DNA from: an uncultured virus (IMG/VR IMGVR_UViG_3300021400_000104)
Taxonomy: Duplodnaviria > Heunggongvirae > Uroviricota > Caudoviricetes
Length of the DNA stretch: 64,000 nucleotides
IMG/VR virus record: IMGVR_UViG_3300021400_000104
Reading direction: 5' to 3' (one strand)
Below, piece by piece: positions 5,349-63,919 of the stretch. A program made the position numbers and the translations under genes. A model generated the notes under the pieces. It was given only the letters and a program-made list of their open reading frames with translations. It did no database searches and was not told the origin of the DNA. Position 1 is the first letter of the stretch. Every line of letters starts with the position of its first letter.

Positions 5349-6254
5349 ATGAATTACAATATTGAATTGTACAATGCAAATTTAAGTTATAAGCCAATTT
5401 ATATGATGTCCTCAAAATTTTTAACGGAAGACTATGTAAATTGGATTATTAACAAAACAATGAATTCTTTTATTAAGAAATATGAAAATGCTTCTGATAA
5501 ACTTTTTATTTTAGACTATAAAGATGATCTTATTAGTGTTATCTGTTACAGAATGTTGAAAAATTTACAAAGCGTGTCTCCATTTAAATTTAATATAGCA
5601 ATTATGGGAAAGATTCATAAAACTAAACAATTTCTTCAAAAAGAAAAAAGAATTTATAAATGGAAACTTAAAAAATATTTAAAATCAAATTCTTGTGTTA
5701 TTATACAGGGATTTAACCCTCTATATAATAAAGTATTAAATACAAATATAGTCTTCAATGATTTCGATTGTCCAATTTGGAGACCTGTAGAAAACTATAC
5801 CCCTTTTGTTTTTGAAACTGCACAAGTTTTTTATCATATTGATTATATTCCACATGATATTATATTTGGACCTGATAATTATGAAGAAATGATGTCTTTT
5901 GATAAATGGTGCCGCGGCATAGAAAATTTTTACTATCCTTGTTTTGAGGATTATGAGAAAATCTATCAAATTGCTATGGTAAAATTAACAAATAATTTAG
6001 ACAAAGATATGAAACTTCTTAATGAAGTTGAAAATTTTGACGGAATTATTTTTTATTATTATGATGGAGAAATGCCTGCATTACTAAAAAGTGAATATAA
6101 TCTATTTTTAAAAAATTCCTGCAATATGCCAGGTTATAACAATATTAATAGTAGAATGGGATTAGATATTAGTGAAGATTATAAAGTACGTTATAACTTT
6201 TTTGGGGACTGGACAGATAGTCAAATTGAATATTACAAGGAGAATGAGAAATGA
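5349..6254 (+). CDS. Hypothetical protein, possibly degenerate PP-loop (TtcA/TilS-like) fold
   Basis: TAG-free track ORF of 301 aa. Weak resemblance only (LKNLQSVSPFKFNI; IWRPV); no SGGxDS motif. Confidence 0.55.
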   Translation: MNYNIELYNANLSYKPIYMMSSKFLTEDYVNWIINKTMNSFIKKYENASDKLFILDYKDDLISVICYRMLKNLQSVSPFKFNIAIMGKIHKTKQFLQKEKRIYKWKLKKYLKSNSCVIIQGFNPLYNKVLNTNIVFNDFDCPIWRPVENYTPFVFETAQVFYHIDYIPHDIIFGPDNYEEMMSFDKWCRGIENFYYPCFEDYEKIYQIAMVKLTNNLDKDMKLLNEVENFDGIIFYYYDGEMPALLKSEYNLFLKNSCNMPGYNNINSRMGLDISEDYKVRYNFFGDWTDSQIEYYKENEK

Positions 6255-6766
6255 AAATTTTTATTGTAAATGGTCAAGGTGGCGCAGGTAAGTCAACATT
6301 TGAATATATTATTCAAAAATATGCTTGGGAGGAAGATTTTAAAGATATTACGATTACTTCAATAATTGATCCAATAAAAGCAATCGCAAAAGAAATAGGA
6401 TGGAATGGAGGAAAAACAAATAAAGATAGAGCTTTCCTTCATGATTTAAAGGTATTACTACATAATTATAATAATTGCGATACAAAATATATTATAAATA
6501 AAATTAATAATGCCGAAACACTTAAGCGCGCAGCAATTTTTATTGACATGAGAGAGAAAGAAGATATTGCAGATTTTAAAGATTTGTTCCCAGAAATAAA
6601 AACCGTTCTTATTAAACGGGGAGAATTTTTCTCTTATGGGAATGAAGCAGATGATAATGTCTCGGATATTAATTATGATATTGTAATTGAAAATAATGGG
6701 ACATTAGAGGACTTTGAAAAGAAAGCGATTGATTTTTATAATAAGGAGATTTGTAATGGTATTTAA
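6251..6766 (+). CDS. P-loop nucleotide (dNMP-like) kinase
   Basis: N-terminal Walker A GQGGAGKS; IDMRE; C-terminal DIVIENNGT. Confidence 0.75.
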   Translation: MKIFIVNGQGGAGKSTFEYIIQKYAWEEDFKDITITSIIDPIKAIAKEIGWNGGKTNKDRAFLHDLKVLLHNYNNCDTKYIINKINNAETLKRAAIFIDMREKEDIADFKDLFPEIKTVLIKRGEFFSYGNEADDNVSDINYDIVIENNGTLEDFEKKAIDFYNKEICNGI

Positions 6767-7253
6767 GTATTATACTGATGGTGCTTGCACATTAAAAAAT
6801 GAAAATGGTGTGTATTCTAAAGGTCCTGGTGGATGGGCATACATCAGAATTCAAGATGGAAAAATTACAACATAGTCTAGCGGCGGCTCTAAGAAAACAA
6901 CAAATAATGAGTAGGAACTTACCGCTATTATGGAAGCATTAATTGATGCAGAGAAAGCGACCATTCCAGGTGACGAAATTGAAATCTATTCTGACTCTGC
7001 TTATTCAATAAATATTTATACTCAATGGATAAAAAACTGGGAGAAAAATGGTTGGACTCGCGGAAAGAAACATGAGCCAATTGAAAATTTATTTGTTATT
7101 AGAGATACTTATGACCTTATAAAGAGACTTGAAGAACAATTTATAAAAGTTACTTTTATTAAAGTAAAAGGCCACTCAACAGATAAATTTAATCAGTATG
7201 TCGATACGCTAGCAGTCGAAATGAAAATAAAAATGAGTCAAGCAAATGCTTGA
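6756..7253 (+). CDS. rnhA: Ribonuclease HI (TAG read-through)
   Basis: YTDGAC, GPGGWA, TTNNE[Q]EL, YSDSAY, KVKGH and N..VD.LA motifs; two TAG. Confidence 0.9.
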
Positions 7254-7278
7254 CTTTTCTTTTTATTTATGGTATACT
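7250..7278 (+). promoter_or_regulatory. Sigma-A-type promoter
   Basis: TTGACT-N17-TATACT with extended TG. Confidence 0.75.
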
Positions 7279-7308
7279 ATTTATAGAAAATAAAATGGAG
7301 GTGCTGTA

Positions 7309-8439
7309 ATGTACGGTTATATTGATGGAATTGATTTCCATAATTTGGAAGCTGAGAAATATTGGTCTTTCCCTAAAACATATAAGGGAAATAAGCATGA
7401 AGAGACAAGAAATTTCATTTTATCTGGAGAATATTTAGGCGCAGAAAAAATGGATGGTCACTATGCTCGACTTATTAAAGATGAAGATGGTAATATTATT
7501 CTTCAGGGGCGTTCTAAATCTGTAAGCGGAGAATACCTTGATAAGCACGAATGGATGCCACAACTTAATGATTTCTTTGATTGGCTACCAAATGGAACTT
7601 GTCTTCTTGGAGAACTCTATTTCCCTAATCAGAGAGGCTCTCGTAAGGTGACTACAATTCTTGGTTGTTTGAAAGATAAGGCAATTGAGAGACAAAATGC
7701 CGGGGAAAAATTATGCTATTATATCTTTGATATTTGGGCTTGGACGGGCAACTCTCTTTTAAATACAGACGCAAAACACCGTTTTGGTCTAGTTATGGAT
7801 ATTGGCGTAGATGAAAAGACTATGTGTAAAAATGCTTATGTTAATTTTGCAAACTATTTAAGTGGAGAAAACCTTTGGGAAAGACTTTGGGGAATTTTAA
7901 ATGCTGGCGGGGAAGGGATTGTAATCACAAGAGCGAGCTCTAAGCCTGAACCTGGCAAGAGAACGGCAAGAAAAACTCTCAAAGTTAAAATGGAAATTGA
8001 ACAAACAATTGATGCTTTTCTTGATGGTAATTATAAGCGTCCAACTAGACTTTATACTGGGAAGGAAATTATGGTCTGGCCATATTGGGAAAATCTCAAA
8101 ACTGGAGAAAAATCTGATAAAAATATGTATAAAGAATATGATGCCGGATTACCATGGGAACCCGTAACAAAATCATATTATAATGGTTGGGCGAGTGCAG
8201 TTTCTTTTTCCGTTTACAAAGATAATAAGCTAGTGCATATTGGATGGATTTCTGGAATTACTGACGACTTGAAAAAGGAAATTATCTCTAATCCAGAAAA
8301 ATGGAAGAATAAGGTTGCAGAATTGACGGCAATGGAAATTGAACATATTGACGGGAATTTTAGTCTTAGACATGGGAGAATTGTAAAGTGGAGAGAAGAC
8401 AAAAATGCCACTGATTGTACTTTTGACCAGATTAATTAA
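7309..8439 (+). CDS. ATP-dependent DNA ligase
   Basis: Motif I EKMDG, GEL, YIFDI, EGIV, LKVK; C-terminal SLRH...REDK; TAG-free. Confidence 0.85.
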   Translation: MYGYIDGIDFHNLEAEKYWSFPKTYKGNKHEETRNFILSGEYLGAEKMDGHYARLIKDEDGNIILQGRSKSVSGEYLDKHEWMPQLNDFFDWLPNGTCLLGELYFPNQRGSRKVTTILGCLKDKAIERQNAGEKLCYYIFDIWAWTGNSLLNTDAKHRFGLVMDIGVDEKTMCKNAYVNFANYLSGENLWERLWGILNAGGEGIVITRASSKPEPGKRTARKTLKVKMEIEQTIDAFLDGNYKRPTRLYTGKEIMVWPYWENLKTGEKSDKNMYKEYDAGLPWEPVTKSYYNGWASAVSFSVYKDNKLVHIGWISGITDDLKKEIISNPEKWKNKVAELTAMEIEHIDGNFSLRHGRIVKWREDKNATDCTFDQIN

Positions 8440-8451
8440 GGAGGAGAGACA

Positions 8452-9081
8452 ATGGGTAGTAAAACTTTCATGACAATTGGCGCAGAAAATCATACGAATG
8501 AAACCCGACAAGCTGAAGATTTTTATTCAAGTGATCCTCGCGCGGCCTCTCATATTTTTTCTAAAATGCCTGAATTTTTATCAGCAGACAAAATTATTGA
8601 GCCTTGTGCTGGGAATGGCATATTAGCAGATTAGATAAAAGAGATAACCGGTAAGAATGTAGATATGTATGATTTAATTAAACGAAGAGATGATATTAAC
8701 ATTGCCAATTATTTTGACTTAGATATTAAAAATAAATATGATTTAATTATAACAAATCCTCCATATAAAAAAGGGACAAAAGCTGAACCTGGTCTTGTTG
8801 AAATGATTTTAAAAATGTTAGACGATATTAGACCTAATGGATATGTTGCATTACTTTTAAAAACTCTTCATTTAGAGTCTCAGGATAGGTATAATAGAAT
8901 TTTCTCGAGTAAGCCACCAGAAAAAATTTTCGTTTATGCGCCGAGGATTACTTGCTATAAAAATGGAGATATGAATATTTCTCAAGGGGCAATAAGTTAT
9001 TCCTGGTTTGTTTGGCATAAACAAGAAAATGGAGAATACTTAAATAAATCGGTTCAATTGGGATGGATTGAAAAACTCTGA
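8452..9081 (+). CDS. DNA amino-methyltransferase (N6A/N4C), TAG read-through
   Basis: Motif I EPCAGNG and motif IV NPPY are joined in frame across TAG 8632-8634. Confidence 0.85.
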
Positions 9082-9126
9082 TTAATCTGTTGAAGAAAGA
9101 ATCTTCATATTTCACTTTATTAAGAG

Positions 9127-9157
9127 AGGGAAGACTTAGAGTCTTCCCTATTTTTAT
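9127..9157 (+). terminator. Intrinsic terminator-like hairpin
   Basis: AGGGAAGACT-tag-AGTCTTCCCT followed by ATTTTT. Confidence 0.6.
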
Positions 9158-9173
9158 TAAAGAGGTGAGTTTC

Positions 9174-10010
9174 ATGAAAGAATGTTTTTTAACTCCAATT
9201 AATATTCCCGCGCCGCCACCTCATACTCAGATTCATCCAAGGTGTTTTACCTGTAAAAAATTTCCCGTATGCAATTTAAGGGAAGATTACCTTAAAACTG
9301 CATTGTTAATGCAAAGAGTTTTAGGGGATCCTTAGGAAGATAGAGAACTTGGATAGTTTGATTATAGATGTGGATATTTACCTGGATTTAAAGGGTATAA
9401 TTTTCATAAGCCGGATGATATTTTTCCAGAAGAAATCAAAACTACTGATAATGAAACTGGAAAATTTCTTGATGCTAAATGGAGAAATTTAAATATTGTA
9501 TAGTTCATCTATATTATTGAGAAATATTATGTTCGATTTGATGCTTTCTGGAATTATGAAGAAGAAATTTTTGAAATTAGAAATGGGCATGAAGTATATT
9601 ATGGTACTCCATATATATTAGAAACAGATTCAATAGTTACTATTACTTCTCAATTAGGGGTATGGAGAAATGAAATGGAAGAAAAAGAAAAGGAGAACGA
9701 AAATTATGATGTAATAAATACGACTTATTTTTCTGCTAATTTAAATTGTGACTTTTATGAATACGAGAAGGGATTAACAGAAGAAGAAGGAATTAGACGT
9801 ATGATTGCTCATTATCCGAAAGGAATTCCTTGTAAAGATGGAAGCTATTATCATTTAGCTACATTCCATATCGAACCATATAAAGTGCCGATGTACCACC
9901 CAGAAAATGGTAAAGTTGCCTTTGCCCCAATACCGTATCCCGTTTTTGTTCCATCTCCTTGTCCACCACGTCACGCTCACCCAAAACGTAGAGAAGATTA
10001 TGGAGATTAA
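9174..10010 (+). CDS. Hypothetical protein, 278 aa, with Cys and Pro-rich termini (TAG read-through)
   Basis: ATG at 9174 after GAGGTGA; joins track ORFs 9090-9335 and 9675-10010 across three TAG. Confidence 0.75.
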
Positions 10011-10416
10011 AACATCAAAAGGGGAACAAAAACTTATTAATTTATTCCGACGTGGAGGAATACAATTTATTAGAGAAGTAAGTTTTAGTGATTTAACTGG
10101 GAAGAAAAAAACATATCTTAGATATGATTTTGGATTATTCAAAAATAATAAATTAGTTTGTTTAGTAGAATTTGATGGTAAATAGCATTACGAATACGTC
10201 CCTTATTTTCATAAAAACTATTCAGGTTTTTTAAAATAGCAAGAAAGAGATAGGCAAAAAAATAGGTATTGTTTAATGCACCAGATTCCACTTATTCGTA
10301 TTCCATATTGGGATTTAGAAGAATTAACTTTAGAAAAAGTCTTAACAAATTCAGCATATAGAGTTCAAACAAAATATCATAATGATAATCTCATAAGAAG
10401 CGGGGTGAAAAAATGA
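10000..10416 (+). CDS. Vsr/DUF559-like PD-(D/E)XK endonuclease
   Basis: SKGE, LRYDF, VEFDGK[Q]H, RDRQKNRYC and LIRIPYW motifs; its TGA overlaps the next ATG. Confidence 0.8.
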
Positions 10417-10802
10417 CATTCGCAACTTTATGGACAATTTTTAAAGGAATTGGAAGTGGAGTCGGAATTATTATTACTCTTGTTACTTTCTGGGGATTAA
10501 TTTCAAAAAAACCCAAAGCCGCACTTCACAATATGATCCTTAATGGATGCAAAGCTGCAAACTCTCAAATCGAAGATGACATGAGAGAAGTATTAAGTAG
10601 ACTTAATAAGAATGATTAGGCTACAGTTGTATCTTTAAGACATTCTATTACTAACATTTATGAAAATTATAAATAGGATAAAAAATTTCCAATTCATGTA
10701 AAGGAAGATTTAATGAGCCTTCTTGATTAGTACGACTCCTTTGGAGGAAATTCGTATGTACATACAATTATAGAAGAAATGAAAACATGGGATGTTGAAT
10801 GA
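10413..10802 (+). CDS. Membrane-anchored phage protein (possibly holin-associated)
   Basis: N-terminal hydrophobic helix; C-terminal Y..FGGNS motif; three TAG. Confidence 0.6.
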
Positions 10803-10807
10803 TAATT

Positions 10808-10837
10808 AGGCCGGCATTATGCCGGCCTTCTTATTTT
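10808..10837 (+). terminator. Intrinsic terminator
   Basis: AGGCCGGCAT-T-ATGCCGGCCT followed by TCTTATTTT. Confidence 0.7.
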
Positions 10838-10926
10838 ATATTAATCAGATGATTTTATTAAAATCATCTGATTTTTATAGAGTGATTTTATTTATTTTTC
10901 ACATAAAATTACCAGCAGTCAAAATC

Positions 10927-10955
10927 TTGACTTTCCTAAATTTTTGTGGTATACT
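10927..10955 (+). promoter_or_regulatory. Sigma-A-type promoter of the nrdH-nrdD region
   Basis: TTGACT-N17-TATACT with extended TG. Confidence 0.75.
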
Positions 10956-10977
10956 TAAAATAGTAAAATAAAAAGGA

Positions 10978-11205
10978 GTGATTAAGATGAATAAGCCAGT
11001 ATTATATTCAACAGGTTGTCCAAAATGTAAAGTATTAGCAAAAAAGTTAGAAATGGCAAATATCGTTTATGAAATTAAGGATGATTTAGATTCTATTACA
11101 ACTCTTTGTGATTTTTTAGGAGCTACATCTTTGCCAATTTTAGAAGTCAATGGTACATACTTAAATTTTGGGGAAGCAATTAAATGGGTAGGTGAACAAA
11201 ATTAA
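10978..11205 (+). CDS. Glutaredoxin/NrdH-like redoxin
   Basis: YSTGCPKC and a cis-Pro SLP motif; directly upstream of nrdD. Start could be ATG 10987. Confidence 0.85.
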   Translation: MIKMNKPVLYSTGCPKCKVLAKKLEMANIVYEIKDDLDSITTLCDFLGATSLPILEVNGTYLNFGEAIKWVGEQN

Positions 11206-13142
11206 TGTAGATAAATGTAAAATTTGGAAAAAATTTTTAGACTCAACTAAATAGAATGTTAAATGATTATGGAACAGAATTAGCTACATTAAATGGTTTG
11301 GGCGATGAATAGCTCTCTTATGGAGATTTTATTGATAATTTTATTGACGAAAGCGTTGTTGCAGATGCAAGTATTGATTCTAATGCAAATGTACGTCGCA
11401 AGGACGTTGTAACTCTTCTCACTGAAATGCCTAAGCCACATAGAAAATTAATGGCTTTTAATAAAATTTATTATGAATTTTAGAAGGCTTATGGTTTTAA
11501 AGCTGCAAATGATTGGTTAAAACGCGAATGGGTAGGTGAATTATATCTACATGATGCAGATACTTCAACTTTTAAGTCATATTGTTTTGCCTATGATTTA
11601 AAAGACTTAGCAGAAAAAGGACTTTACTTCCTTGGGGATAACTTCAATCCAAAGCCTCCTAAGCATTTGACAACTTTTATTGACTTTGTGAAAGAATTTA
11701 TTAATTTTGCTAGTAATCGTACTTCAGGTGCAGTCGGATTACCTAATCTAATTCCTTATATGTATTATTTCTGGAAGCAGGACGTAGAAAATAATTATTT
11801 AGGAATTCAAGATGGAGAGTCTTATGCAAGACAAAATATTTAGCGCTTTATCTATGCGGTTAACCAACCTTGCGTAAGAGACGGATAGCAATCTGCTTTT
11901 ACTAACACTTCTGTTTTTGATAGAGAGTATTTAATGGCATTATTTGGTGGAGCAGAATTCCCAAATGGAGAATTTATGGTCGATCATATTGAAGGAATTA
12001 TGGATTTCCAGAAGCTATATATGGAAGTAATGGCAAATGTAAGAAAAGAAAATATGTTTACTTTTCCTGTTTCTACAATTTCTATGATTAGAAAAGATGG
12101 AAAATTTGTTGATGAAGAGTTCTCTAATTGGGCGATTGCTCATAATATGTAGTGGTCTGATTCTAATCTTTTCATTGATGATAATGTTTCAAGTCTCTCT
12201 AATTGTTGCCGCCTCAAGAGTGATATTAAGGACCTTGGCTATTTTAATTCTGTAGGCGGTACTGCACTTAAGGTCGGTTCTATTAAGGTTAATACAGTAA
12301 ACTTTGCTCGTCTTGCTCTTGATACTAATAGCACAGAAGAGTTCTTTGCTGAACTTGGAGAAAGAACTTTGTGCGCGATTAGAGCACTTCATGTCGTTCG
12401 TCATATTATTAGAAGAAATGTAGAAAAAGGACTCCTTCCAAACTTTTCTTATGGCCTAATTGATTTCAAGTCTTGTTATAATACAATTGGCTTTATTGGA
12501 ATTTATGAAGCTCTTAAAAAGTTTGGTTTCACTTATCAGGATAAACTCGGTAATACCTATTATACTAAAGAAGGAGAAGACTTTGGTGAGCGTATCTTTA
12601 AGGTAATGAGAGAAGTAGCAGATAACTTCATTAAGGAAAATGAATGTGATTATATGATTAACACAGAATAGATTCCGGGTGAAAATGCTGCGGCAAAGCT
12701 CATGAGAAAAGATAAATTCTTCTATCCCGAAGCGAATATTTATGATTTACCGCTTTATGGTAATCAGTTTATGCCGCTTGGCGTTAAAGCAACTCTTTAG
12801 GAAAGAGTTCGTGTGCAGGCTCTGTTTGATAGCTTCTGTAATGGCGGCTCTATTCTTCATGCTAATATTGATGCTCCTTTCAAGAATTTTGAAACAGCAA
12901 AGAAAATGGTTGAATATATTGCCGACCAGGGCGTAACTTATTTTGCTTTCAATACAAAGATTTAGGCTTGCGAAGACAATCATGCTTTCTATGGTACGAC
13001 ATGCCCGATCTGTGGGAAGCCTATCGCGACTGAATATACAAGAATCGTTGGATTCCTTACTCCGATTAAAAGTTGGACAAAGGAAAGAAAAGCAGAGTAT
13101 AAAATGAGAAAATGGGAGAAAGTTAATAATGAATAGAATTGA
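11205..13142 (+). CDS. nrdD: Anaerobic (class III) ribonucleoside-triphosphate reductase, no ATP-cone
   Basis: LYLHD, YCFAY, QSAFTN, FTFPV, SNCCRL, E[Q]IPGE, C-terminal Zn site and the glycyl-radical loop RIVGF. 11 in-frame TAG by manual count, including codon 2. Confidence 0.93.
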
Positions 13143-13683
13143 TAGAGAAAATGAATATGGAATCAAGGAAGTCCCTGATGTTTTTATCTGTGATGAAAAT
13201 GGAGAAATCTTATATTATTCGAGAACATTAAAAAGAGTTGACTTTACTCCATTGTCTCCATTGTATGGGAAAGAGAAATGGCAATGCTCTATTATGGGAG
13301 CATTAGGAAACCTTGAAGATTGGTATCATATTCCATACGATGAAAGAATAAAGACTTTTTATTTTAGAACTTTTAAAAGGAATAGAGATACTGGAAAAGA
13401 TGAACCATTGTGTTTTGCAATTTCTCCTTTAGAGATTCTTATCCAACCATTTTCTCTTGTCGCGGATGGCGATCCATTTACTTTTCCAATCACTTTTTAT
13501 TTTCGTTCTCATAATCTTATTTGGATAGATAGTGAAAATTGTCCTAATTATGAAATTTCTTTCGAGGAATAGGAACTTCAATCTTATGCTAAAATTACTT
13601 TTTTAAAGCCAAAGAAAACTTTTTCAGAAATTAAAGTTAATAATTGCAAAGAGAGATTAAGAGAAATAAGAGGTAATAAATAA
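13129..13683 (+). CDS. Hypothetical protein
   Basis: Track ORF extended through TAG 13570 to TAA 13681-13683. Confidence 0.65.
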
Positions 13684-13712
13684 TTCTATTATCATCCGAT
13701 GATATTAAAAGA

Positions 13713-13901
13713 ATGAAAGAAATAAATAAAAAGTTACAAGGCAAGAGACTTGTAGGTGGACCAGTAGATGATATTGGTCCACTTGATATTACAATAGACA
13801 ACGCACTTTGTGATTATATAGAGCACAATGCTGAAGAAATATTAATAATTGTGCTTTCATTATTAAAAAGGAGAGAAGAAGATGATGATATACCCGTGTG
13901 A
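13713..13901 (+). CDS. Hypothetical protein
   Basis: Short track ORF in operon orientation. Confidence 0.4.
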   Translation: MKEINKKLQGKRLVGGPVDDIGPLDITIDNALCDYIEHNAEEILIIVLSLLKRREEDDDIPV

Positions 13902-14349
13902 TTATTAGGAATTTATGAATATTGTTTTTTCTTTTTACTATAATCCTATTCCAATATGGACTTAGGTTTTTGTAACTAAAAAGGAAGCTATGGAAAAATT
14001 AAGTAGTATAATTGCCGATTTAACCCGTTTGAAACCTGAAGTGTCTTCTTGCGATAATTCTCATTGCTTTAGAAGTCCTACTGGTGGACTTTTTGAAATT
14101 TATTGTAAAGACAGATACCAATTTTGTTGCGGCAAAAGGGCACATAATGTAATTGCTGATAGTGAGTACCCTTTAATAGATTTTTATGAAGTATTTATGC
14201 CAATGAGTAATTTAGGCTTTGGTTGTACTTACAGTATAAATTCTTATGATATTATTTAGCATTGGGATGAAGCTCATAAAAAAGGGAAAGAAGATATTGA
14301 TTACTGGAAAAAAGTGAGGGAAGAAGATGCTAATAAAGAACTTAATTGA
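13882..14349 (+). CDS. Hypothetical protein (TAG read-through)
   Basis: ATG at 13882 after AAGGAG; in frame with track ORF 13990-14259; TGA at 14347-14349. Confidence 0.6.
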
Positions 14350-15468: not shown

Positions 15469-15486
15469 GATTGGAGGATATATTAA

Positions 15487-16446: not shown

Positions 16447-16450
16447 ATTC

Positions 16451-16479
16451 TTGACTTTTTTTCCATTTTATGATATAAT
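16451..16479 (+). promoter_or_regulatory. Sigma-A-type promoter
   Basis: TTGACT-N17-TATAAT with extended TG. Confidence 0.8.
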
Positions 16480-16501
16480 AAATAAAAGTGAGGTGAAAAT
16501 A

Positions 16502-23584: not shown

Positions 23585-23590
23585 CTATTA

Positions 23591-53687: not shown

Positions 53688-53700
53688 TTCCTTTCACCTC

Positions 53701-56247
53701 TTAATAGAATAATGGGACATACTTAATTTGTAATTTATTAAGTAAGTCTGCATAGCCCCAATACAATGGAGGGAAGTTTGCCCAGATATAATCACAAGCA
53801 TACCACCACCATTCATCAATATCACCAATGCAACTACAATTAGCATCAGTGGTATTAACTCTCCAATAATCAGCAAGCAATTTTAAGAAACCATATTCAT
53901 CAGCTTCTATTCTGTGCCGCCAAATTTCATGACCTAATCCAAGTAATGAACCTTTTCTCTTCATATTAACATTTTCTTCATTATAATAATCATCAAAATA
54001 TGCCTCAGCCATATTTCCATATACTGAAAAGCCCTTTTCGTTCTCATGCCAACGGCGGAACTATAAATAATCTTCAATCTAATATAATTCAAGACTATTA
54101 AAATATTCTCTTAATCCATTTTGCGTAGTGTCTTCAGGCATTTTCCTCCTATCATTATCTTCGTTCGGACTCTATACAACAGAATATTTTTCTAATACCT
54201 CTAAAGGCACATTCTATGACAGATATTCTATTGCCGCGGCACGATAAACTCCATTGAATTTCTTTCTAAAATCCTCATTAGGAGTTCCCCAATCAAATGG
54301 GCGACCATCAAGCCATCTCTTTCCACCCCATACGTCCTCATCAACAACAGGACTTATATCAATCATTGACCATCCAGGTGGTAATTTAAACCAGTGCCCG
54401 CGCACGATATTTTCATTAAATAACTGTTTCGTAGGTTTAAAGTTAAAAAAGTTATCATTAAACTAAGGATTATCTTCTAAAAATTCTCTTCCTTCTTTTG
54501 TACGCGAATCTCTCCACTTCGGGTCATTTATATTATACAACATTCTTTTCTCAGTGTCAAGAAAAAGAGGTTTAATAGTTGATCTATTGACATCATCATT
54601 ACAGTGACAATTATCACATCCACAACAACAATTAGGAATTTTATCAAAGTCTTTATTATTAATATCAAAATAATCAAATGTATAATATCCAGGATAACGA
54701 GTTAAGTTAAATAAAAACTATCCATATTTTAAGTTTAATTTTTCTCTTATATATTCTGGTGGACTATAAATATAGTCATGAATAAAATCTTCGTAAGTAT
54801 AGTTCTCATTAAAAATACCAAGTCCTGGATCAACATAATTCTTAATATATTCATCTGCATCTTTAAATCTGTCTAAAATAGTATCTTTTAAAGTATGCCA
54901 ATATAGTTCATATCTTTCATGGTCATTAATACAACCTGCATAAAGTTCTTCATATCTATTAGCATATTCTTTACCCTATTCAAAATTTATTACTTCCTGC
55001 ATCATTCCATCTTCAATTAAAGAACTCTACCAATAAAATAACCTAATAAAATAACCTAATTTTTCTTTTGGAATAGGCTCAACTATATATGTATGCTTTG
55101 GATGAGAAAAACTAAGATTTTCATAAGTAGGCTCATAATTATCAGTTCCAAGAATTGGTGCCGGCGCGCCTAAAATTGTAAAATAACGATTACCATATTT
55201 ATAATCTTCATTTTCTTTTTTACGATAAGTTTTTAATCCTGTAAAGTCTACTGCTTCAGGAATTGTTAATCTCTATACATTGTATCTACTAATTCTAAAA
55301 GTATAATTATCTGTATTTTTTCTAAATTGAGAACTTAAATTTCCGAGTCTTATTTCAAAATCTATCGGCAAATCTCCTGGATTATAGACTAAAACTCTAC
55401 TGCCAATTAATCCATTCTAACGATTAAGTCCTGTATCCATATTATAATAATTTACTTTACTATATTGAGGACAATAAATTAGCTCTCTATCATAGTCTAA
55501 AGTTGGAGTAGTTAATAGTTTTGCCGTGCCTTCCCATTCAGGAATATTGTCCCAATATCCTCTTACATCTATAATTTTTTTACGTCCATCTGGCGCATTG
55601 AAATATAGTTCGCCCCATTGAACCTAGTCAATTGCTGGATAACCACCCTTCCAAGGTGTACTCATATTTGGTTCAACATTATAATGATTTTTTATTAAAC
55701 CAGGTAACATTTTGGGTGCTTTTTTCTTTTTATACGGATTATCATTAATAGAACGAGTAATTATCTCTTTAGGCTATAAGCACTTATAGTAATCGGCCGC
55801 GCGCACAACATACTTATTAAAGCAATATGCATATGGGAAATAGCAAATAAAATTCAAAGTTCCTTCTCCCTTGTAAACTCTCTCTCCTGTGTCTCTATCT
55901 GTAAAACAGATAAATTTAAAATCAGGTTTATTGGAAAGTTTTGCTCTGTATGTCTTAAATGGCATCTCATCAAATACTAAATCTTGAGGCTTATCAGTAG
56001 AAAAAAGCTATTGAATTTCTCTAAAATTCTATTCACTTACTTTATCAAAAGCTACATCTATCTAAAAACTTCTATTTCTAAAAGTCTGTCCAAAATAATA
56101 TTCTCCATCTCCTCCAGGCACTTCAATAGTATAATCTGTAGGATCAGGCAACAGGTTTTTTTCGTACCTGTCGCCTGAACTTACAACTACTAAATGAAGG
56201 CGCTCAGAATGGATATTTCCAAAGCGGAAGCCAGTAAAATCTCTCAT
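53701..56247 (-). CDS. Distal tail (Dit)-like protein with large insertions, 848 aa
   Basis: FTGFRFGNIHS...EVPGGDGEYYFG...LVFDE.P.K.Y...F.CY.PYA and NPGD motifs; directly after the tape measure gene. Confidence 0.8.
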
Positions 56248-56263
56248 TCTGCCTTTAACCTCC

Positions 56264-59200
56264 TTATCTCCTTAAAATTACGGATGAGCCTTGAGGTCTA
56301 GCTGCATCAACAATTTCTTGTTTCATACGCTCAATTGCATTATCCATATCTACTTCACTGGAGATACTCTCTATATTAATGTTGACTTCGACATTAGTAT
56401 CTCCAACAATCTAAGAAAAACCAGTAGAAGTTAAATTAGAGTTAAGTAATGGGATAGAGGAAAGAAGTTGCGCCGCATTACCGATACGTTCTGTATCCTT
56501 TGCGGATAAAAAGGCTTCTGGTTTAACCGGAGAACCGTCTACCCAAGCGGGGCCGGTATAATTAACAAGTCCACCTTTTGCATATTTAAGAAATTCTGAT
56601 GGAATCCATTCGTAATACCCTTGTTGTCCTATTGCTAGCTCTTCTCCATTTTTCTTCCGTTGATTTATAATATTTTTATTTTGCCTTGCCCATTCTTCTA
56701 CAATAGTATTATATGCGGTAATAGGTGGATTATCGTCAGAAGGATTATAAATATTAGCGCTACGCATCGCGTTCATTAATAGAGTTTTATCCTTACTATT
56801 GTAAAGATTTTTCACTATAAAATCATAAAGCCCGTGATTTCCGAACTAATCATTAATTCCGTTTCCATTTGCGATATATGTAATACCCTATTTATATAAT
56901 GAACTGTCCTTATTAATAAAACGTTCTTTTTGATTTGAAAAACCGTCATGTAATTTTGCTGCGCCACTTTTCCCTGGAACTTCTGCCTGATATTCCCAAA
57001 GTCCAGTCGCCGAATTTTTAACAATTTGCCCCTTGCCCTTGTTGGAAACCATACTATTTTGAGCTCGAGTGAGTGAAGCAGATACTTTATAAGAAGACAA
57101 GCCACTTTTACTCCCTGTTTCATTATATGCTCCAATTCCAATACTATTTCCAGTACTTGTATTATCTCTAATTTCTTTCAATAAATCATTCTACTCTCTG
57201 ATAGCAGTTTCCAAACTGATCTTGGCGTTTTCTAAATTATCCTTAGCAGAAGTTATAGCCTAATCTACTTTATCAATTCCCTCATTAACGAATCTCTCAG
57301 CTTCATTAATTTCTGCTTCAGAAGTTGTCAATAAAGTCTAATTAATCAATTCATTATTACCATTAAGTGCCTCTGCCATCTAACTTCCGTCATAATTATG
57401 ATAAAGTTCAATAGAATCATAATAATCTTCCCAATCTCTTATCTGCTATTCAAGTTTAGCATCTGACATTTCTGTAACTTCTTTATTATTAGCAATCATC
57501 CAAGCAGTAACATCATCAGGACTTGTCCAGCTACTTATAATCTAAGTTGCCTCTCTTATAATAGCCTATTCGTCAAGACTTTGCTCCTATAACTCAATTT
57601 CTCTTTCTCTCTATTCTTTCTATAAATCATACATCTATTTCAAATTATCTAATATATCATCAACAGTATCATCAAGAAGCGACTATCTATCAGATTCAAT
57701 TTCTTCATTTAATTTATTTAACTCAAGTCTATTTACTCCACTTGTATCTCTTGCAAGTAATGCTGCTTGGCTCTCTTTCTTAGCTAAGTCTTCCCATTTA
57801 TTCTACTAATCTCTTAATTTTCTCTATCTATCTATTGCATCTTGAAGAGCATCTAAATATTCACTATCTGCATCTGTCATAGCTTCATTTTTCTCTTTAT
57901 TGGCGTCTATCTCTTCTTGGTATTTATCTTTCAAAACTTTAATAACTTCATCTTCAACTTTTACATATCCATCAACAATTTTCCTTTCAAATTCTTTTAA
58001 TTCTTCGCGACGTTTCTCCATAGCTTCGTCAATTTCACGAACTTTCTTATTACCCTTATTAATTTCATCTATTACATTTTCAATCATATCTCTAACGTCA
58101 TCAGGAAGATTTGCAGCATTAAGTTTATCAAAGTCAACTGCTAATATGCCAGTTAATGGATTCTAATAATAATATTGACTTATATCTGTTGAAATATTAC
58201 TGTTATATTTCTTATTTAATTCCTAAATTTTTGATGCAATGCCAGTGTCTAATTGTCTCTAATAATTAGCAATAGACTATTCATAAACTTTTCTTTCGGC
58301 TTGCTATACAGAAGATTCCTATTCAAGTAAACTGCGATAATCTTCTAAAGAACCTTGCATATCATCAGTAGTTAAATTATCAATTTTGTCTTTTGTTTTA
58401 TCTATTTGATGCTAAATTTCTTCGAGCATATTATTATAATTATACATAGTATCTAACTTATTCTTCTTATTATCAGTACCATATAGAGTTTCATTTAATT
58501 TTTCTTGTGCTTCAATAACTTTTTTCTATGCTTCTTCGACCTTCTTAGTAGCATCTGCAATTTTTTTACTACTATCTTCAACAGTCTTTGTACCTTTCTT
58601 TATTGCCTCGTCCTCAATTCGAGCCAATCCTTTTATATATGCACCTTCATTAGCAAATTTAGATTTCCAAAAATTATCATCAGCTAATTTTTTCTAACCC
58701 TCTTTAATTGCTTCATTATATTGTTTAAGTGTCTCTTTAACTTTCTCTCTATATTCCGGGCTTTCATTTATTTTATTTGCCATAGTATTAAACATTTTTT
58801 GAATGTTATTAGCATCATACTCTGTTCCACTCAATTCAGTTCTGAAAATTCTCGCTGCCGCGGCTGCATCATAAGTGCGCTTTGTGACATCTCCCATGCC
58901 ATCTGCCTAATCAATAATAGTCTAATATGTATTTCTTTCCTAAATAAGCTGTTCAATACCTGCTTCATATTCCTATTTAGCTTTAGCAATCAATTCATCT
59001 TTTCCTGATATAAGTCCCTATGTATCTTCATACAATTTATCATATAGGAACTAAATATCTCCATCTGAATTAGTGGAGAAATAATCAGAAGCATTTAATC
59101 TTAATTTATCAATTTGTTCTGTAATTTTCCCTTTGCTTAAAGGGTCAATAAATCCATTTTCAACCTATTCAGAAATATAGGAGCTAACATTATTAAATGC

Positions 59201-62200
59201 CTCATAATATCCACTTATTGTTGTTTCAATACTATTTTCAATATTTTCTAATGCGCCACTTGATCTAATTGTCAAATCAATTGCATTATACTTTTCTGCA
59301 CTATTAAAGAAATTACTCCACAACTAATCAATAGTATCCTAATCAAAAGAGTCTCCCATTGCTGTTTGCATAATACTAATAAACTATTCACGCATAGTAT
59401 CAAGATTTGTTAAATCAATATTTTCCCAATCAAACGCCTATAGCGCGGCAGTAGTCATAGTTTCATCTAATCCAGCAGCTTCAGCACTATCTACTAGAGA
59501 TCTTATAAATTGTCCTGCTAAATCTTCGTCTTCTAATTTCTTCTCAGCTTTATTAAATACTTCAGAGATTTGTGTCAATGTATTTGTAGACCAATTTTCA
59601 TTAACTCTCCCAAGAATATCTTTTACTTCTTCTTGTAAGTCAATTAACTATTTAGAATATTCTCCTGTTATTTGATTTTTAATTTCTTCAACTACTTCTT
59701 CATTCAATCCAAGAGAATCAATAAAATTGTTAATAGCGTCAATTTCAGCTTGAGTTGCTCCATCAGAAAGTTGTCCTAAAAGATTAGTTAATTCTTGATA
59801 ATCTGTTTTTCCTAAATTTTTTAGTGCTACTTGAGTCTCTTCTGTAAGTTTTTCCAATTTCGTAGCATTTGCAATTATAGTTAAAATTTCCGCCTATCCT
59901 GCTGAATCTCCTGCACGCTTTAGCCATTCAGCGTCAGCAGCATCATCATAAATTTTTTCCCAAGCCTTAATAATGTCATCAACTATTAATTTACCATCTT
60001 CTCCTAAACCAGCGGCAATTAGCTGATCAGCAAGTTCTCCAGTAATTTCGTTATCTTTTCTTTCTCTTAGTTTAGCAAGACTAGAAAAGCTATTTTCAGA
60101 TACGCCAAAGCGAGCACCGCCAAGCTAATTAGTTAAAGAATTAATATTTTTATTCTATTGGCCTAATGTGAAGAGACCAGCTATTGGACTTAACATTCCA
60201 GGAATATTAGCATATTCAGTCCAATAACTACCATTTTCAGCATTTACTGTTTTAAATCTCTCATCATTAATATTTTCAGCATTTTTTGCATTAATTGCTC
60301 CTACGGCAGTCCAAAGAGCGTTTTCTCCTTCGGTTAATTCTTCTCCTCTATTAGCAGCATATTCCTAAGCAATAATCTATCCTGTCTATTTATAACCATT
60401 TTCAATATTTGCAGAAATCTAGTCAGCAGCATCCGATAATATTTTGCTTAAATTACTATTTGTGTCTAATAAGGCTTCATATGTTTTGTTTTGTATTTCT
60501 AAAGAATTTTCCCAAATCTACTGTCCATCATCATAAGGAATTTCCAAAATTTCAGCAAGCTATCTTAAATCTGTATCATCAAAATTTGGAATATAGTTCG
60601 TAGGTAAATTTTCTCCAATAGACTTACCTTCTTCAGAATAATTTTTAATTAAATCTTCTACTAAACTTGCCTACAATCCTGTATTAGAAGAAACCTAACT
60701 AATAATATCTTTTTCGTTAGCTTTTGTATTAAGAGATACTGCTGACATATTCGCTGCATTAGCAACTTTTCTATCTATTTCAACTTGTCTTTCTTGCTAT
60801 TTAATAATACTATCCCATAAACCTTCCTAAATTCTTAATTCTCCAGTTATCTCATTATAATAAGAAACAATTTCTGGGAAAGAACTTTTTATTTCATTGA
60901 CTAATGAGTTATATTCCTGCTATTCTTCCTCTGTTTTAACTACTTTTCTTGATAATTCTTCATAACGTTCTTTTAATTCTTTAGTATGCTCGGCAGTCTT
61001 CTTGCTATCTTCCGCAACCTTTTTAGTTTCACTTGCATAGCTTTTAGCCTCTTTGGCGCTTTCCTTGATTGCATTAGTATTATCTTGCCAAGCCTCTTCC
61101 GTAGTTTTAATATTTTTAATTTCCTAAATTGTTAATCCAATTACAATACCTAATACAGCTGCAATTCCCGCGATTGCCAAGGAAATTCCTGCTGTTGCTG
61201 CCGCGGCAGCAAGCCCTACAGTAGCAACTCCAGCTAAAAATTGGGGGATAATTACCGCAGCTGCAGAAATCATTGTATTTTGAAGAGTAATTTTTATTAC
61301 ATCGAAAGGATTATTTGATGCTATAGCGGTTGTAATAGATGAAGTAAGTGCAGTAACAAAAGCGACACCGGCCGCTTGTCCTATCTGAGCGTACTAGGCC
61401 TAAGTATTAGCTTTTATTTTATCACTTAAAACCTTCTACTCTTCATTAGTTAATCCTTCTTGATTAAGTTTTCCACCAGAATATTCAAATACTCCCTTAG
61501 CAATTATGCCTGAAGCGCCAGTAGAAGTAAAAATTTTCCCTAAGCTAGCTTGCAATCCTGGTATACTCTACTATGTTGCTGTAATTAAATTACTAAAAAC
61601 TCCCTATCCCGCGAGAACTCCTGACGTCTAAAGCAATTTAAGCGTTGTAGCAAGTGCCGCACCAATTCCTAAAATTTTAGTAGGCCCAATTTCATTCATT
61701 TTATCTACAACTTTTGTTAACCATTCAATAACTCTCTTAAATACATCACTATCAATCAAAGAAGTCCTAAACTGTTCCCAAGAATTTTTTAACTAATTAA
61801 CTTTATATTCTACAGTATCTTGATATTTAGCAAACTATTGCTCTGATCTACCAGCAGAATCTTGAGCGACAGAAACTAGTTCCATAGTTCTATCATAGTC
61901 CTCCATCATAGCAATAAAACGTGACTATTGACGAGAACCCGCAGCAATGGTAGCAATATACCTCTGTGTATTTCTATCTAAAGATTTCCATTTAGAACTT
62001 AATTCAAGGAATACTTCATCCAGATTTCTGAACTATCCGTTTGCATCTTTAATACTAATTCCAACACTTTTTAACGCTTTATCAACTTTATTAAATTCCA
62101 AATCATCAAATTCAGACTAATCTGTTCCAGCAACATTCTCTTTTAATTCAGTAAAACGTGCGATAATAGTTTTCATCGCAGTACCAATATTTTCAGGAGC

Positions 62201-63919
62201 TTCCTAAGTAGTCTCAATCATATTAGTAAGGAAAGCTGCAGTTGATTCAAAACTCATACCTGCTGAACTTGCAATAGATGCAGTCTTACTCATCGCATAG
62301 GCAATACCATTTACATCTGCCGCAGCATTAGCAGCAAGTTCTGAATATACGTCGGTAACATGAGCGCCCTAGTCCATTTCCAAATGGAAACCACGAAGGG
62401 CAGCTGTCATCTGCTAGGTTGCAGTCTCAAAATCTGCTCCTGCCAAAGTTGCAAGTTTCATAGTATCTTCAGTAAGTTTTAACGCTTCATTTGTATCAAG
62501 ACCTTGCTGATAGAATAATGCAGATGCCTTAATCGCAGATTCTGTTGACTGCCCTAATCTGTTAGCAATATCTGTATACTAGCTATAAGTATCCCACAAC
62601 CCAGCAACAGTTTTGTCTGTTACCATTGCAATTGATGCAAAAGCCTTATCAAGAGATTGTACATCAGAGAAAGTCTATCTGATGATATTTCTTAATTGAT
62701 AATAAGCATTTCCTAAAGAAAAAATATAAGCAATTCTGCTTTTTAACTAATTTAATGTATTATTAAACTTCTACTAATTATTTGCTGCCTATTGGGTATC
62801 TTGAATTGTTTTTCTTAAAGTTTGTAAGTATCCTTGAGTCTATCCTTTCATACCTTCAATAGCATTATTATTATTTCTATATATTGTTTCTAATTCTTTT
62901 GTCTAATTCGAAGTTCTTTCTTCTGCTTGCTTAATATTTTTATGCGCCTGTTCATTTTTTTTAATTTCTTCACTATTTCGGTTTAATGAATCATTAAAAC
63001 TATCCATATCTTGAATGTTTTTTTCTGTCTATTTCTAATTATTTACAAGTTCTTTATCGAGATTTTTTAATACATTCTGTACTGGAGCAACATTTTCCTA
63101 AAATCTTCTAATTCCTTCAGCAATTTTATTCTCAATTGTTGCAGTATTTGTTGCTGTTATATTATGCTCAGTTAAAAACTGGGTAAAATCTTTTGTTGCT
63201 TTTTTTGCATTAGTAGTAGATGAGACAATTTTGACAAAAGCCTCTTTTATCTAATCTAATTGCTATAAATTTATATTTTCTCCTGTTGTAATGTCTTTAA
63301 AATTATTTGTTCTAAATCCAACTTTTGAAACAGAAGATAACTAATTATTTAAATTATTAGTAGCATTTTGTTTTTCTTTTTCTAATTCCTGTCTTTTCTA
63401 TTTTTGTATATCTAACTATTCCTAATATACTTCTTTAACTCTCTTCTAAATTTCTTCTAAACTTTTACCTTCTTTTACTGCTTCGATAATTTCCTTTTTT
63501 AGCGCGGCAGCCTAACTTCCTTTTATAGAGCTTGTATCTACTTTAAAAGTATTTGAAAACTATTTAGCTAAATCAACAGCTTCTTTTTTTAATTTATCGA
63601 CCTCTTGTTCAGCTTCTTTTATCTATCTTTTGAAATTGTCTGCATTTATATTGTCAAGTGAATTCCCAATTTTAATAATATTCGTTTCTAATTTATTAAC
63701 ATTATTTTCAAAAGTTTTTAATTCTTTCGGAGAAGAAAAACCCTTTTCTGCCTAAGCCTTTAATGTAGCTCCTAATTCTTCAACTTTTTTAATTTCTTTA
63801 TCTAAATTTCCTAAGAGTTCAATATTTCCTCCTTTAGAAACAGAATCTCTTACCTATTTTATTGCAGATAATATTTGCGATATATCAAATACGCCTCTGT
63901 ATTCAATTTTTTCAGTCAT
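56264..63919 (-). CDS. Tail tape measure protein (~2551 aa, TP901-like core)
   Basis: ATG at 63919 with a GAGGTGA RBS; LDKAFASIAMVT, IGTAMKTIIARF and IAAGSRQ[Q]SRFIAMM motifs; hydrophobic Ala/Gly region, long coiled coils and C-terminal YAKGGLVNYTGPAWVDG. Very TAG-rich; continuity inferred from in-frame fragments. Confidence 0.88.

Follow-up and report, generated by a model that had tools for sequence, protein, structure and literature searches.

Cyanobacterial genomes carry highly iterated palindromes (HIPs), short words found in every reading frame at densities of 1000-2000 per Mb; beside HIP1 (GCGATCGC), alternative words include GCsGC (in Cyanothece PCC 7822), GGCGCC and rCCGGy/GCCGGC, and the cited part of that work gives their function as unknown and a methyl-directed repair ratchet as their proposed origin (Elhai 2015, PMC4390886). 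A dispersed family of GC-only words is described here from a 64,000-nucleotide stretch of an uncultured virus of the Caudoviricetes (IMG/VR record IMGVR_UViG_3300021400_000104), hereafter the window, whose GC content is 31.8%. An earlier sequence-only reading of the window had noticed that the hexamer GCCGCG, read as CGCGGC on the opposite strand, is over-represented, and had proposed that it is a selected signal embedded in coding sequence. We find that CGCGGC is the commonest product, in this lineage, of a clade-wide bias towards GC-only islands, and not a discrete recognition site. The bias acts on double-stranded DNA and is position-free, clade-wide and phage-specific.

The CGCGGC excess and the islands around it

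All 29 loci at which the sequence-only reading had placed GCCGCG/CGCGGC were recovered exactly, and they amount to 35 strand hits, each of six 8-bp palindromes (GCCGCGGC) being counted twice. Dinucleotide-preserving shuffles, scored on both strands, gave a mean of 1.96 (standard deviation 1.35, maximum 6), and 0 of 100 reached 35. A codon-shuffled null, which that reading had put forward as a check, was also run: when synonymous codons were shuffled inside genes, with TAG read as glutamine and with protein sequence and codon usage kept, 4.77±2.23 copies of CGCGGC were expected against the 35 found (maximum 11; 0 of 1000 shuffles reached 35). Genes for the nulls were called crudely, as the longest stop-to-stop open reading frames (ORFs) under the same reading of TAG. 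As the excess outlasts this null, neither protein sequence nor codon usage accounts for it. CGCGGC also ranks first among the hexamers of the window, whether an order-2 Markov model or the codon null is used, and its excess is confirmed.

That the sites fall inside genes in different frames, and that they draw on rare codons, had been part of the same proposal and was borne out. All 35 hits lie in ORFs and occupy four codon registers: xxC-GCG-GCx (Ala-Ala) 13 times, GCC-GCG (Ala-Ala) 12 times, CGC-GGC (Arg-Gly) 7 times and xGC-CGC-Gxx 3 times. The codons involved are uncommon in the window (GCG 153 and GCC 105 of 1182 alanine codons, CGC 45 of 714 arginine codons, GGC 185 of 1267 glycine codons), and the pairs that they form exceed expectation (GCC-GCG 12 versus 1.3, GCG-GCA 18 versus 6.2, CGC-GGC 7 versus 0.5). 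A 10-bp palindrome singled out together with the hexamer, TGCCGCGGCA, is present in five copies at the positions first reported for it, with 0.00 expected. The copy at 29045 does extend to a 14-bp palindrome (AGTGCCGCGGCACT), and the one at 61197, for which 14 bp had also been given, runs to 18 bp (61195-61212). The idea that TGCCGCGGCA is a separate entity was tried and rejected, since the T...A flanks of GCCGCGGC match the product of one-sided preferences: T...A was observed on both flanks five times in the window against 5.0 expected, and in 7 of 24 cases against 6.5 at 12 relatives' loci.

The hexamer belongs to a wider clustering of G and C. With S standing for G or C, W for A or T and S6 for all GC-only hexamers, the window holds 224 S6 words against 93±13 under the codon null. 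Those that contain CpG are mostly enriched 3-5-fold, and words with GGG or CCC runs are not enriched. The pentamer GCSGC exceeds the codon null in each frame (frame 0, 48 versus 26.6; frame 1, 26 versus 6.9; frame 2, 6 versus 1.6), and the excess of GC-only runs begins at a length of 6 nt and rises approximately multiplicatively from there (23 versus 6.4 at 8 nt, 3 versus 0.5 at 11 nt). At four-fold degenerate third positions, G or C is found in 52% of cases in a GC_GC context as compared with a baseline of 22% (z=10), while a G/C flank on one side only has a weak effect. When the S/W pattern at third positions was held fixed and C and G were permuted, the expectation for CGCGGC rose from 4.8 to 20.7 (34 observed), so that about 60% of its count is recovered, and GCSGC was expected 73 times against 80 observed. 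On the coding strand, the log observed/expected ratio of a GC-only pentamer follows that of its reverse complement, with r=0.76 in the window (n=14) and r=0.97 in G006 (n=16), a complete relative introduced below. This symmetry makes the trait a property of double-stranded DNA, not of proteins, mRNA or translation.

Some simpler descriptions were set aside. An overall enrichment of CpG is ruled out by total CpG ratios of 1.02 and 0.95, CpG being merely relocated (SCGS 1.3-1.4-fold, WCGW 0.78-0.88). GCSGC is not a strict core motif either, as G006 is led by words based on CGGC/GCCG together with GCCGGC, and as the S/W-fixed null accounts for GCSGC. Spacing is not consistently regular, as the window and G006 disagree: the coefficient of variation is 0.88 in the window against 1.13 for random occupancy (P=0.012), and 1.21 against 1.11 in the larger G006 sample. 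Residue conservation had no effect on the choice of GC-only third positions.

Relatives, putative hosts and purged restriction sites

Eight relatives found in IMG/VR through their topoisomerase II are all enriched 4-5-fold in GCSGC, often with GCCGCC or CGCCGC as top hexamer, and a polymerase-based search added further relatives, complete genomes included, such as G006 (180 kb). At 18 of 18 relatives' loci, down to 46% amino-acid identity in topoisomerase II, GC-only hexamers are in 2.0-7.5-fold excess and GCSGC in 1.8-5.5-fold excess. The top word differs between lineages. CGCGGC leads the GC-only hexamers at five of the 18 loci (L001, L004, L010, L011 and L013) and is absent from L014 and L033; in G006, which has 251 copies of GCSGC in its 180 kb (~1400 per Mb), the top words are GCCGGC (109 versus 14.6) and CGGC/GCCG (838 versus 449), and CGCGGC occurs 6 times against 22 under the S/W-fixed null.

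The sequence-only reading had made its signal depend on synonymous conservation in related phages, and on this point it failed, as no positional conservation was found. Synonymous positions have almost reached saturation between the window and its relatives (four-fold identity 0.39-0.46, with 0.37-0.40 expected). At conserved Ala-Ala dipeptides, a GCSGC on the window's side is no predictor of one in the relative (odds ratio (OR) 1.2-1.5, p=1). Across 28 orthologue pairs shared with G006, the 129 aligned four-fold sites in identical SS_SS contexts gave an OR of 0.74 (p=0.46), and only 1 of 25 CGCGGC sites of the window matches a GC-only hexamer in G006.

A different kind of GC-only repeat was observed in G006, where a stretch at ~155500-174900 (L028-L029) contains a 12-bp GC-only palindrome, GCGCCCGGGCGC, in about 25 copies, close variants included, spaced by ~0.45-1.7 kb. 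Around these copies there are only tiny ORFs and non-coding DNA, and GCGCCCGGGCGC is absent from the window; it looks like a repeated regulatory element (a promoter/operator or a terminator) of this small-gene region.

GC-only clustering is not a generic property of AT-rich phages, since it is lacking in 50 kb each of T4 (S6 ratio 0.76, GCSGC 0.88) and of Staphylococcus phage K (S6 0.64, GCSGC 0 versus 0.8). A scan of species-representative genomes placed relatives on ~165-kb contigs in two metagenome-assembled genomes, G011 and G012, titled uncultured Erysipelotrichaceae bacterium and uncultured Clostridia bacterium, respectively; the assignment of hosts is thus one of metagenomic binning only and is no proof of host. 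In G011, 10 of 11 GCCGCGGC sites are on the phage contig, which is enriched 2.7-fold in S6, 4.0-fold in GCSGC and 9.1-fold in CGCGGC. The bacterial contigs of the same bin (115 kb, 24-27% GC, standard code) have 2 S6 words against 7.0 expected, 5 GCSGC against 4.2 and no CGCGGC, so that 224 S6 words per 62 kb in the window stand against 2 per 115 kb in these contigs. G012 repeats the pattern, with ratios of 0.74 for S6 and 0.58 for GCSGC (4 versus 6.9) in its bacterial contigs and of 2.2 and 2.9 in its phage contig. The confinement of the bias to the phage contig in both bins is evidence against a host Chi and against a mutational or methylase-driven process that acts across the host.

The same phages purge short sites strongly. 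In G006, GATC is found 10 times against 368 expected, CTAG 68 against 305, GGCC 22 against 149, CGCG 13 against 100 and CCWGG (CCAGG) 6 against 90, and its first 60 kb are also poor in TCGA (44 versus 104), CGACG (0 versus 22) and CTCAAG (0 versus 23). The window is depleted in GATC (74 versus 165), CTAG (71 versus 142), AAGCTT (2 versus 21.6), GATATC (0 versus 13) and AGATCT (4 versus 23.7). Such lineage-specific purging decides which GC-only words can accumulate. The window keeps half its GATC sites and carries a Dam-like methyltransferase; the phage contig G012:C1 has no CTAG against 93 expected and 3 GATC against 100. ACTA/TAGT, together with AACTA, ACTAC and CTAC, is depleted to a degree that exceeds the effect of CTAG avoidance (466 versus 590 in the window, 1217 versus 1488 in G006).

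Possible origins of the bias

The islands may well have arisen through a neighbour-dependent substitution bias of the phage's own replication or repair, on which the purging of sites, different in each lineage, then acts as a filter, an explanation that we favour only tentatively. G or C is 2-3 times commoner than elsewhere at synonymous third positions with G/C-rich dinucleotides on both sides (especially GC_GC, as in Ala-Ala and NGC-GGC), and the outcome is short GC-only, CpG-containing islands of 5-13 nt, one every ~0.3-0.8 kb at ~32% GC. The words that win are then set by local dipeptides, by avoidance of GGG/CCC runs and by the purging of restriction sites, such that the window's lineage, which tolerates CGCG, gathers CGCGGC and GCCGCGGC, and G006, which purges CGCG and GGCC, gathers GCCGGC. 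The source of the bias would be the phage's own DNA metabolism, a DnaE-type replicase and recombination-dependent replication that probably work outside host mismatch repair and may favour A:T to G:C changes, or disfavour G:C to A:T changes, in G/C-flanked contexts; the islands would then be nearly neutral by-products and not signals. The absence of the bias from T4, phage K and co-binned bacterial contigs indicates that it tracks the phage's own DNA metabolism. Context effects of up to 75-fold and 403-fold on site mutation rates are documented in the cited part of one study (PMC10085751), which makes a 3-4-fold effect ordinary in size.

Several points weigh against this explanation. Direction and cause of the bias are inferred; we know of no polymerase or repair activity that produces W-to-S changes specifically in GC_GC contexts; and weak per-site selection for GC-only islands, with a product of effective population size and selection coefficient (Nes) of about 1, fits the pattern equally. 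Fixing the S/W pattern leaves a residual for CGCGGC in the window (34 versus 20.7, z=4.4) and for GCCGGC in G006 (109 versus 63, z=10), which stems from the avoidance of purged words and GGG/CCC runs. Correlation between adjacent third positions is stronger where a G/C dinucleotide separates them (Mantel-Haenszel OR 1.5-1.7) than elsewhere (0.95-1.3), which hints at mild cooperativity in run length, and the spacing in the window, taken alone, is somewhat more even than random. In addition, the GC content of the phages (30-34%) is above that of their putative hosts (24-30%), themselves assigned by binning only, and the rare codons in the islands could be a cost paid for function.

Such a function is at the centre of the main alternative, in which the islands are selected for density and not for position, as short, very stable duplex words that form a DNA-level functional element nearly absent from the host chromosome; we regard it as possible, although on balance doubtful. 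Possible roles include a self mark for a phage DNA-transaction protein, attenuation of a nuclease, and nucleation or registration for Sak4-type strand annealing in a genome that is otherwise AT-rich and of low complexity. The trait is kept at 18 of 18 loci across deep divergence (46% identity in topoisomerase II) despite saturated synonymous sites, it is specific to the phage in G011 and again in G012, it is built from rare codons, it has the strand symmetry that a double-strand reader needs, and site avoidance does not explain it; the mild extra coupling of third positions, the somewhat even spacing in the window and the presence of Sak4, RecJ, RuvC and topoisomerase II among the phage's own genes also fit. 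Against it, no protein that reads the islands was identified, none of the words is conserved, spacing is not even in G006, and occupancy of sites is independent between lineages, with a per-site context rule reproducing the pattern; a neutral bias predicts both of these equally. A narrower form, in which CpG-containing all-G/C words, ~100 times denser than in the ~25% GC putative host, constitute a sequence-based self mark, seems unlikely. Nuclease-attenuating, annealing-nucleating, topoisomerase or packaging machinery could thereby tell phage from host DNA without base modification, and the words would be a phage counterpart to Chi or to uptake sequences, albeit a degenerate, palindrome-tolerant and position-free one.

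The remaining candidates fare worse. It is very unlikely that the excess merely follows, as a matter of arithmetic, from avoidance of the Shine-Dalgarno-like GGAGG and of restriction-type sites centred on A/T (GCWGC, CCWGG, CGWCG and others), every synonymous W-to-S escape from such a word making a GC-only pentamer. GCWGC is indeed depleted (70 versus 94 in the window, 55 versus 95 in relatives, 116 versus 207 in G006), third positions in G006 are S in 92% of CC_GG and 94% of CG_CG contexts (3% in GG_CC), and the shift of GG_GG to GGC is seen in T4 too. A constrained null was therefore built from synonymous shuffles in which words depleted at z <= -4 were held at or below their observed counts, on small samples (4-5 for the window, 9 for the first 60 kb of G006). 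With 26 depleted words held in the window, it gave 8.0±2.6 CGCGGC against 34 observed, 54.8 GCSGC against 80 and 114 S6 against 224; with 73 held in the first 60 kb of G006, it gave 4.0 GCCGGC against 34, 66 GCSGC against 91, 113 S6 against 259 and 152 CGGC against 252. Avoidance accounts for about half of the GCSGC excess and for little of the rest, and the positive bias is genuine. In frames 1 and 2, moreover, GCWGC is not depleted (17 versus 15.9 in relatives), whereas GCSGC is enriched 5-6-fold there, and the window's lineage tolerates CCWGG. The by-product reading is thus largely refuted, and frame analysis and constrained nulls together rule out GCWGC avoidance as the primary cause. Similarly improbable is a HIP-type process, in which a host or phage 5-methylcytosine methyltransferase would act on GCSGC or another GC-only word and methyl-directed or T:G-specific repair would ratchet near-misses towards it. 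The density of GCSGC (~1300 per Mb in the window, ~1400 in G006) is within the HIP range, GCsGC and GCCGGC are among the alternative HIPs in the cited part of that account (PMC4390886), the depleted GCWGC is the central transition neighbour, and a C5 methyltransferase gene is present on one bacterial contig of G011 and on the phage contig of a distant relative with 46% identity in topoisomerase II (G012:C1:26883-27935, minus strand; PF00145, E=8.7e-39). No C5 methyltransferase (PF00145), however, was found in the records of 10 closer relatives, three of them at least 97% complete, no Vsr in those of five, and no PF01555, TGT/DpdA or ThyA-like gene in those of four; phage-encoded cytosine methylation, Vsr and modification of the 7-deazaguanine or hydroxymethylase type were set aside provisionally on this ground, for relatives' records that include fragments. 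The two methyltransferases of the window are of the adenine/amino type (NPPY and DPPY), the putative host contigs lack the enrichment that a host-wide ratchet would bring, no depletion is seen for GTSGC and GCSGT, the outer transition neighbours, and the enrichment is spread over many words, with no single palindrome.

The original proposal, in which CGCGGC or TGCCGCGGCA is a discrete site bound by a genome-organising protein or serving as a Chi-like, primase or packaging signal, is highly improbable, although one part of it stands: there is a DNA-level excess beyond the codon null, multi-frame and strand-symmetric. The rank of CGCGGC in the window and at five of 18 relatives' loci, its enrichment in the G011 phage contig and the 1.6-fold preference left after S/W fixing would suit a site. 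Its positions are not conserved, however; it is at or below expectation in G006 and missing from L014 and L033, although primase and polymerase are conserved; and it shows neither strand polarity nor cooperative palindromic extension. On the coding strand, GCGGC and GCCGC alike exceed expectation, and G006 has no consistent switch of orientation along its genome. Chi consists of one word with strand polarity that the host chromosome also carries in excess, and the lack of CGCGGC from 115 kb of putative host sequence means that it is not the host's Chi. As compared with T7-type primase sites, which are defined, strand-specific template words at intervals that suit Okazaki fragments, there is again no single word and no polarity, and spacing is more even than random in the window (P=0.012) and not in G006. 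A translational cause, in which clusters of rare G/C-ending codons would serve pausing or accuracy at Gly/Ala/Arg/Pro-rich motifs, is barely credible. It has in its favour that the islands are built of rare codons and that neighbouring third positions show a weak general correlation (OR 1.2-1.3), but the pattern is reverse-complement symmetric on the coding strand, depends on flanking nucleotides and not on residue conservation, and appears in all frames, those in which the word spans three codons included. Translational accuracy at conserved residues was rejected for the same lack of effect of residue conservation.

Gene content of the window and comparison with known systems

The window comes from a large tailed phage in which TAG stands for glutamine (genetic code 15). 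Under table 11, long stretches of it have no long ORF, and TAG as a sense codon fills them: the summed length of ORFs of at least 100 amino acids is 26,269 amino acids with TAG as glutamine and 13,273 with table 11, and 55 ORFs, the longest of 2551 amino acids, then cover 96% of the window. Of the 801 glutamine codons across the window, replication genes included, 344 are TAG; no in-frame TAG is seen in either topoisomerase II subunit (16502-20790), in the ligase, in ORF 5349-6254 or in the small ORFs of 3520-5218. Gut phages with a recoded stop codon are already known, as stated in the cited part of a preprint (Borges et al., preprint 10.1101/2021.08.26.457843), and the window shows both their regained coding density and phage structural and replication genes. 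Gene identities (Table 1) come from PHROG and Pfam scans of the ORFs. The 1922-amino-acid ORF, ORF 50271-53687, the Dit-like protein and the tape measure form a large tail module. A crAss-like identity, guessed from the giant ORFs, was ruled out by the PHROG tape measure and Dit, the DnaE-type polymerase and topoisomerase II. A blastn comparison of 7.9 kb of the window with INPHARED phages gave no match, and no tRNAs were found within the window.

A strand switch at 39720-41020 separates a rightward replication module from a leftward structural module, the sign of GC skew flipping at ~40 kb, and this region may be a site of regulatory or origin sequences; the ORF at 40133-40762(+) has a low-complexity translation rich in Ile, Phe and Cys, matches no family and is probably no real gene. 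The nearest protein-atlas clusters of the HPr-like ORF are from Bacillota, with one viral cluster, which offers a weak lead to a Bacillota host (score 0.88). In some relatives, matches to essential genes are longer than in the window: those to the topoisomerase II large subunit span ~2.7 kb and not 1.85 kb in L002, L003 and L008, and those to the polymerase ~5.0 kb and not 3.9 kb in L011, L012 and L015. In L002, L003 and L008, the truncated topoisomerase ORF is followed directly downstream by an ORF that resembles the GIY-YIG endonuclease of the window, which suggests insertions of a homing endonuclease, intron or intein in these genes.

Table 1. Sites, genes and other features of the window by position
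Feature	Position	ORF or strand	Codons or basis
GCCGCGGC palindrome	5911..5918	ORF 5349-6254(+)	TGC CGC GGC (Cys-Arg-Gly)
CGCGGC	8541..8546	NPPY methyltransferase ORF 8452-9081(+)	CGC GCG GCC
GCCGCG	16024..16029	thioredoxin-reductase-like ORF 15487-16446(+)	GCC GCG (Ala-Ala)
GCCGCGGC palindrome	17762..17769	topoisomerase II large subunit ORF 16502-18364(+)	GCC GCG GCA (Ala-Ala-Ala)
GCCGCG	18526..18531	topoisomerase II ORF 18421-20790(+)	GCC GCG
CGCGGC	18606..18611	topoisomerase II ORF 18421-20790(+)	GTC GCG GCG
CGCGGC	19099..19104	topoisomerase II ORF 18421-20790(+)	CGC GGC (Arg-Gly)
GCCGCG	19501..19506	topoisomerase II ORF 18421-20790(+)	GCC GCG
CGCGGC	20843..20848	ORF 20790-21191(+)	ATC GCG GCT
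CGCGGC	22241..22246	ORF 21672-22562(+)	AGC GCG GCA
CGCGGC	27953..27958	DnaG-type primase ORF 27389-28450(+)	CGC GGC
GCCGCGGC palindrome (14-bp palindrome 29045-29058)	29048..29055	RecJ-like ORF 28447-30198(+)	TGC CGC GGC
CGCGGC	29653..29658	RecJ-like ORF 28447-30198(+)	CGC GGC
GCCGCG	29734..29739	RecJ-like ORF 28447-30198(+)	GCC GCG
CGCGGC	30096..30101	RecJ-like ORF 28447-30198(+)	GTC GCG GCA
CGCGGC	33229..33234	DnaE-type polymerase ORF 32348-36298(+)	TGC GCG GCC
CGCGGC	33812..33817	DnaE-type polymerase ORF 32348-36298(+)	CGC GGC
CGCGGC	33874..33879	DnaE-type polymerase ORF 32348-36298(+)	ATC GCG GCA
CGCGGC	36089..36094	DnaE-type polymerase ORF 32348-36298(+)	CGC GGC
GCCGCG	39438..39443	RuvC-like ORF 38994-39719(+)	GCC GCG
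site	41577..41582	ORF 41019-41978(-)	GCC GCG on coding strand
site	42200..42205	ORF 42012-42245(-)	GGC CGC GAC
site	46491..46496	1922-amino-acid ORF 44525-50293(-)	AAC GCG GCG
GCCGCGGC palindrome	54233..54240	Dit-like tail ORF 53701-56247(-)	GCC GCG GCA
site	55796..55801	Dit-like tail ORF 53701-56247(-)	CGC GCG GCC
GCCGCGGC palindrome	58857..58864	tape-measure ORF 56264-63919(-)	GCC GCG GCA
site	59444..59449	tape-measure ORF 56264-63919(-)	GCC GCG
GCCGCGGC palindrome (18-bp palindrome 61195-61212)	61200..61207	tape-measure ORF 56264-63919(-)	GCC GCG GCA
site	63503..63508	tape-measure ORF 56264-63919(-)	GCC GCG
wider feature, window-wide	1..64000		84 GCSGC sites (~1300 per Mb) and 118 GC-only runs of at least 6 nt
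HPr-like phosphocarrier protein	4961-5218	minus	PF00381, E=4e-9
ligase	7309-8439		PHROG/Pfam
amino-type DNA methyltransferase, NPPY	8452-9081	plus	PHROG/Pfam
GIY-YIG endonuclease	14797-15468		PHROG/Pfam
thioredoxin-reductase-like ORF	15487-16446	plus	Pfam scan
topoisomerase II large subunit	16502-18364	plus	PHROG/Pfam
topoisomerase II second ORF	18421-20790	plus	PHROG/Pfam
helix-turn-helix protein	24976-25695		
DnaG-type primase	27389-28450	plus	PHROG/Pfam
RecJ-like	28447-30198	plus	PHROG/Pfam
amino-type DNA methyltransferase, D12/Dam-like, DPPY	30633-31385		PHROG/Pfam
DnaE-type polymerase	32348-36298	plus	PHROG/Pfam
RuvC-like	38994-39719	plus	PHROG/Pfam
1922-amino-acid ORF	44525-50293	minus	no family match
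Dit-like tail protein	53701-56247	minus	PHROG
tape-measure protein	56264-63919	minus	PHROG; 2551 amino acids, very long
DnaB, Sak4	in window		PHROG/Pfam
NrdD, RNase H, dUTPase	in window		PHROG/Pfam
M23-type lysin	in window		PHROG/Pfam
HNH endonuclease	in window		PHROG/Pfam

If the bias is mutational, the islands would offer a clean natural read-out of the error or repair spectrum of a phage DnaE-type replisome outside host mismatch repair, and would call for caution, as striking phage motifs could then arise from a context rule and restriction-site purging. If it is selected, they would represent a new dispersed and degenerate DNA signal that sets an unmodified AT-rich phage genome apart from its host, with a bearing on replication, recombination or self-recognition in large virulent phages that infect Bacillota of the gut and rumen. 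Either way, GC-only hexamers at more than twice the codon null at ~30% GC are a compact compositional signature by which contigs of this recoded phage clade can be told from bacterial ones in the same bins. No prior description was found in the literature on the motif and on iterated palindromes in phages, surveyed mostly at the level of titles and abstracts. On the whole, a DNA-level bias is supported and a discrete signal is not.

Among known systems, restriction-site avoidance in phages is shared by the same genomes, which purge short palindromes strongly and with a set that differs by lineage, but the present finding is an enrichment, of which avoidance explains a minority. Chi and the FtsK-orienting polar sequences (KOPS) are likewise short GC-rich over-represented words that act by density and not by exact position; unlike them, the islands have no polarity, no single word and no counterpart in the putative host. 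Neighbour-dependent mutation and context-dependent codon bias resemble the trait in that the third position follows its flanking bases, free of position and at equilibrium across saturated lineages; they differ in that GC-only runs are built here in an AT-rich phage and are absent from the putative host, T4 and phage K, a combination for which no earlier report was found. The closest known analogue is the HIP-class words of cyanobacteria. Unlike HIPs, the islands are carried by a phage and are missing from its putative hosts, a search of the 10 closer relatives yielded no cognate cytosine methyltransferase, and the islands form a GC-only family at 2-13 times the codon null (GCSGC 2.3-4-fold, top hexamers 7-13-fold), as against observed/expected ratios of tens to hundreds; there is no dominant word with end variants, the flanks of the palindrome core are independent, and a third-position context rule covers most of the pattern. 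Like HIPs, they appear as short, GC-rich, mostly palindromic words in coding DNA, in all frames and both orientations and at ~1000-2000 per Mb, with a word identity that varies between related genomes, with GCSGC and GCCGGC among the words, and with an origin in biased repair proposed for them.

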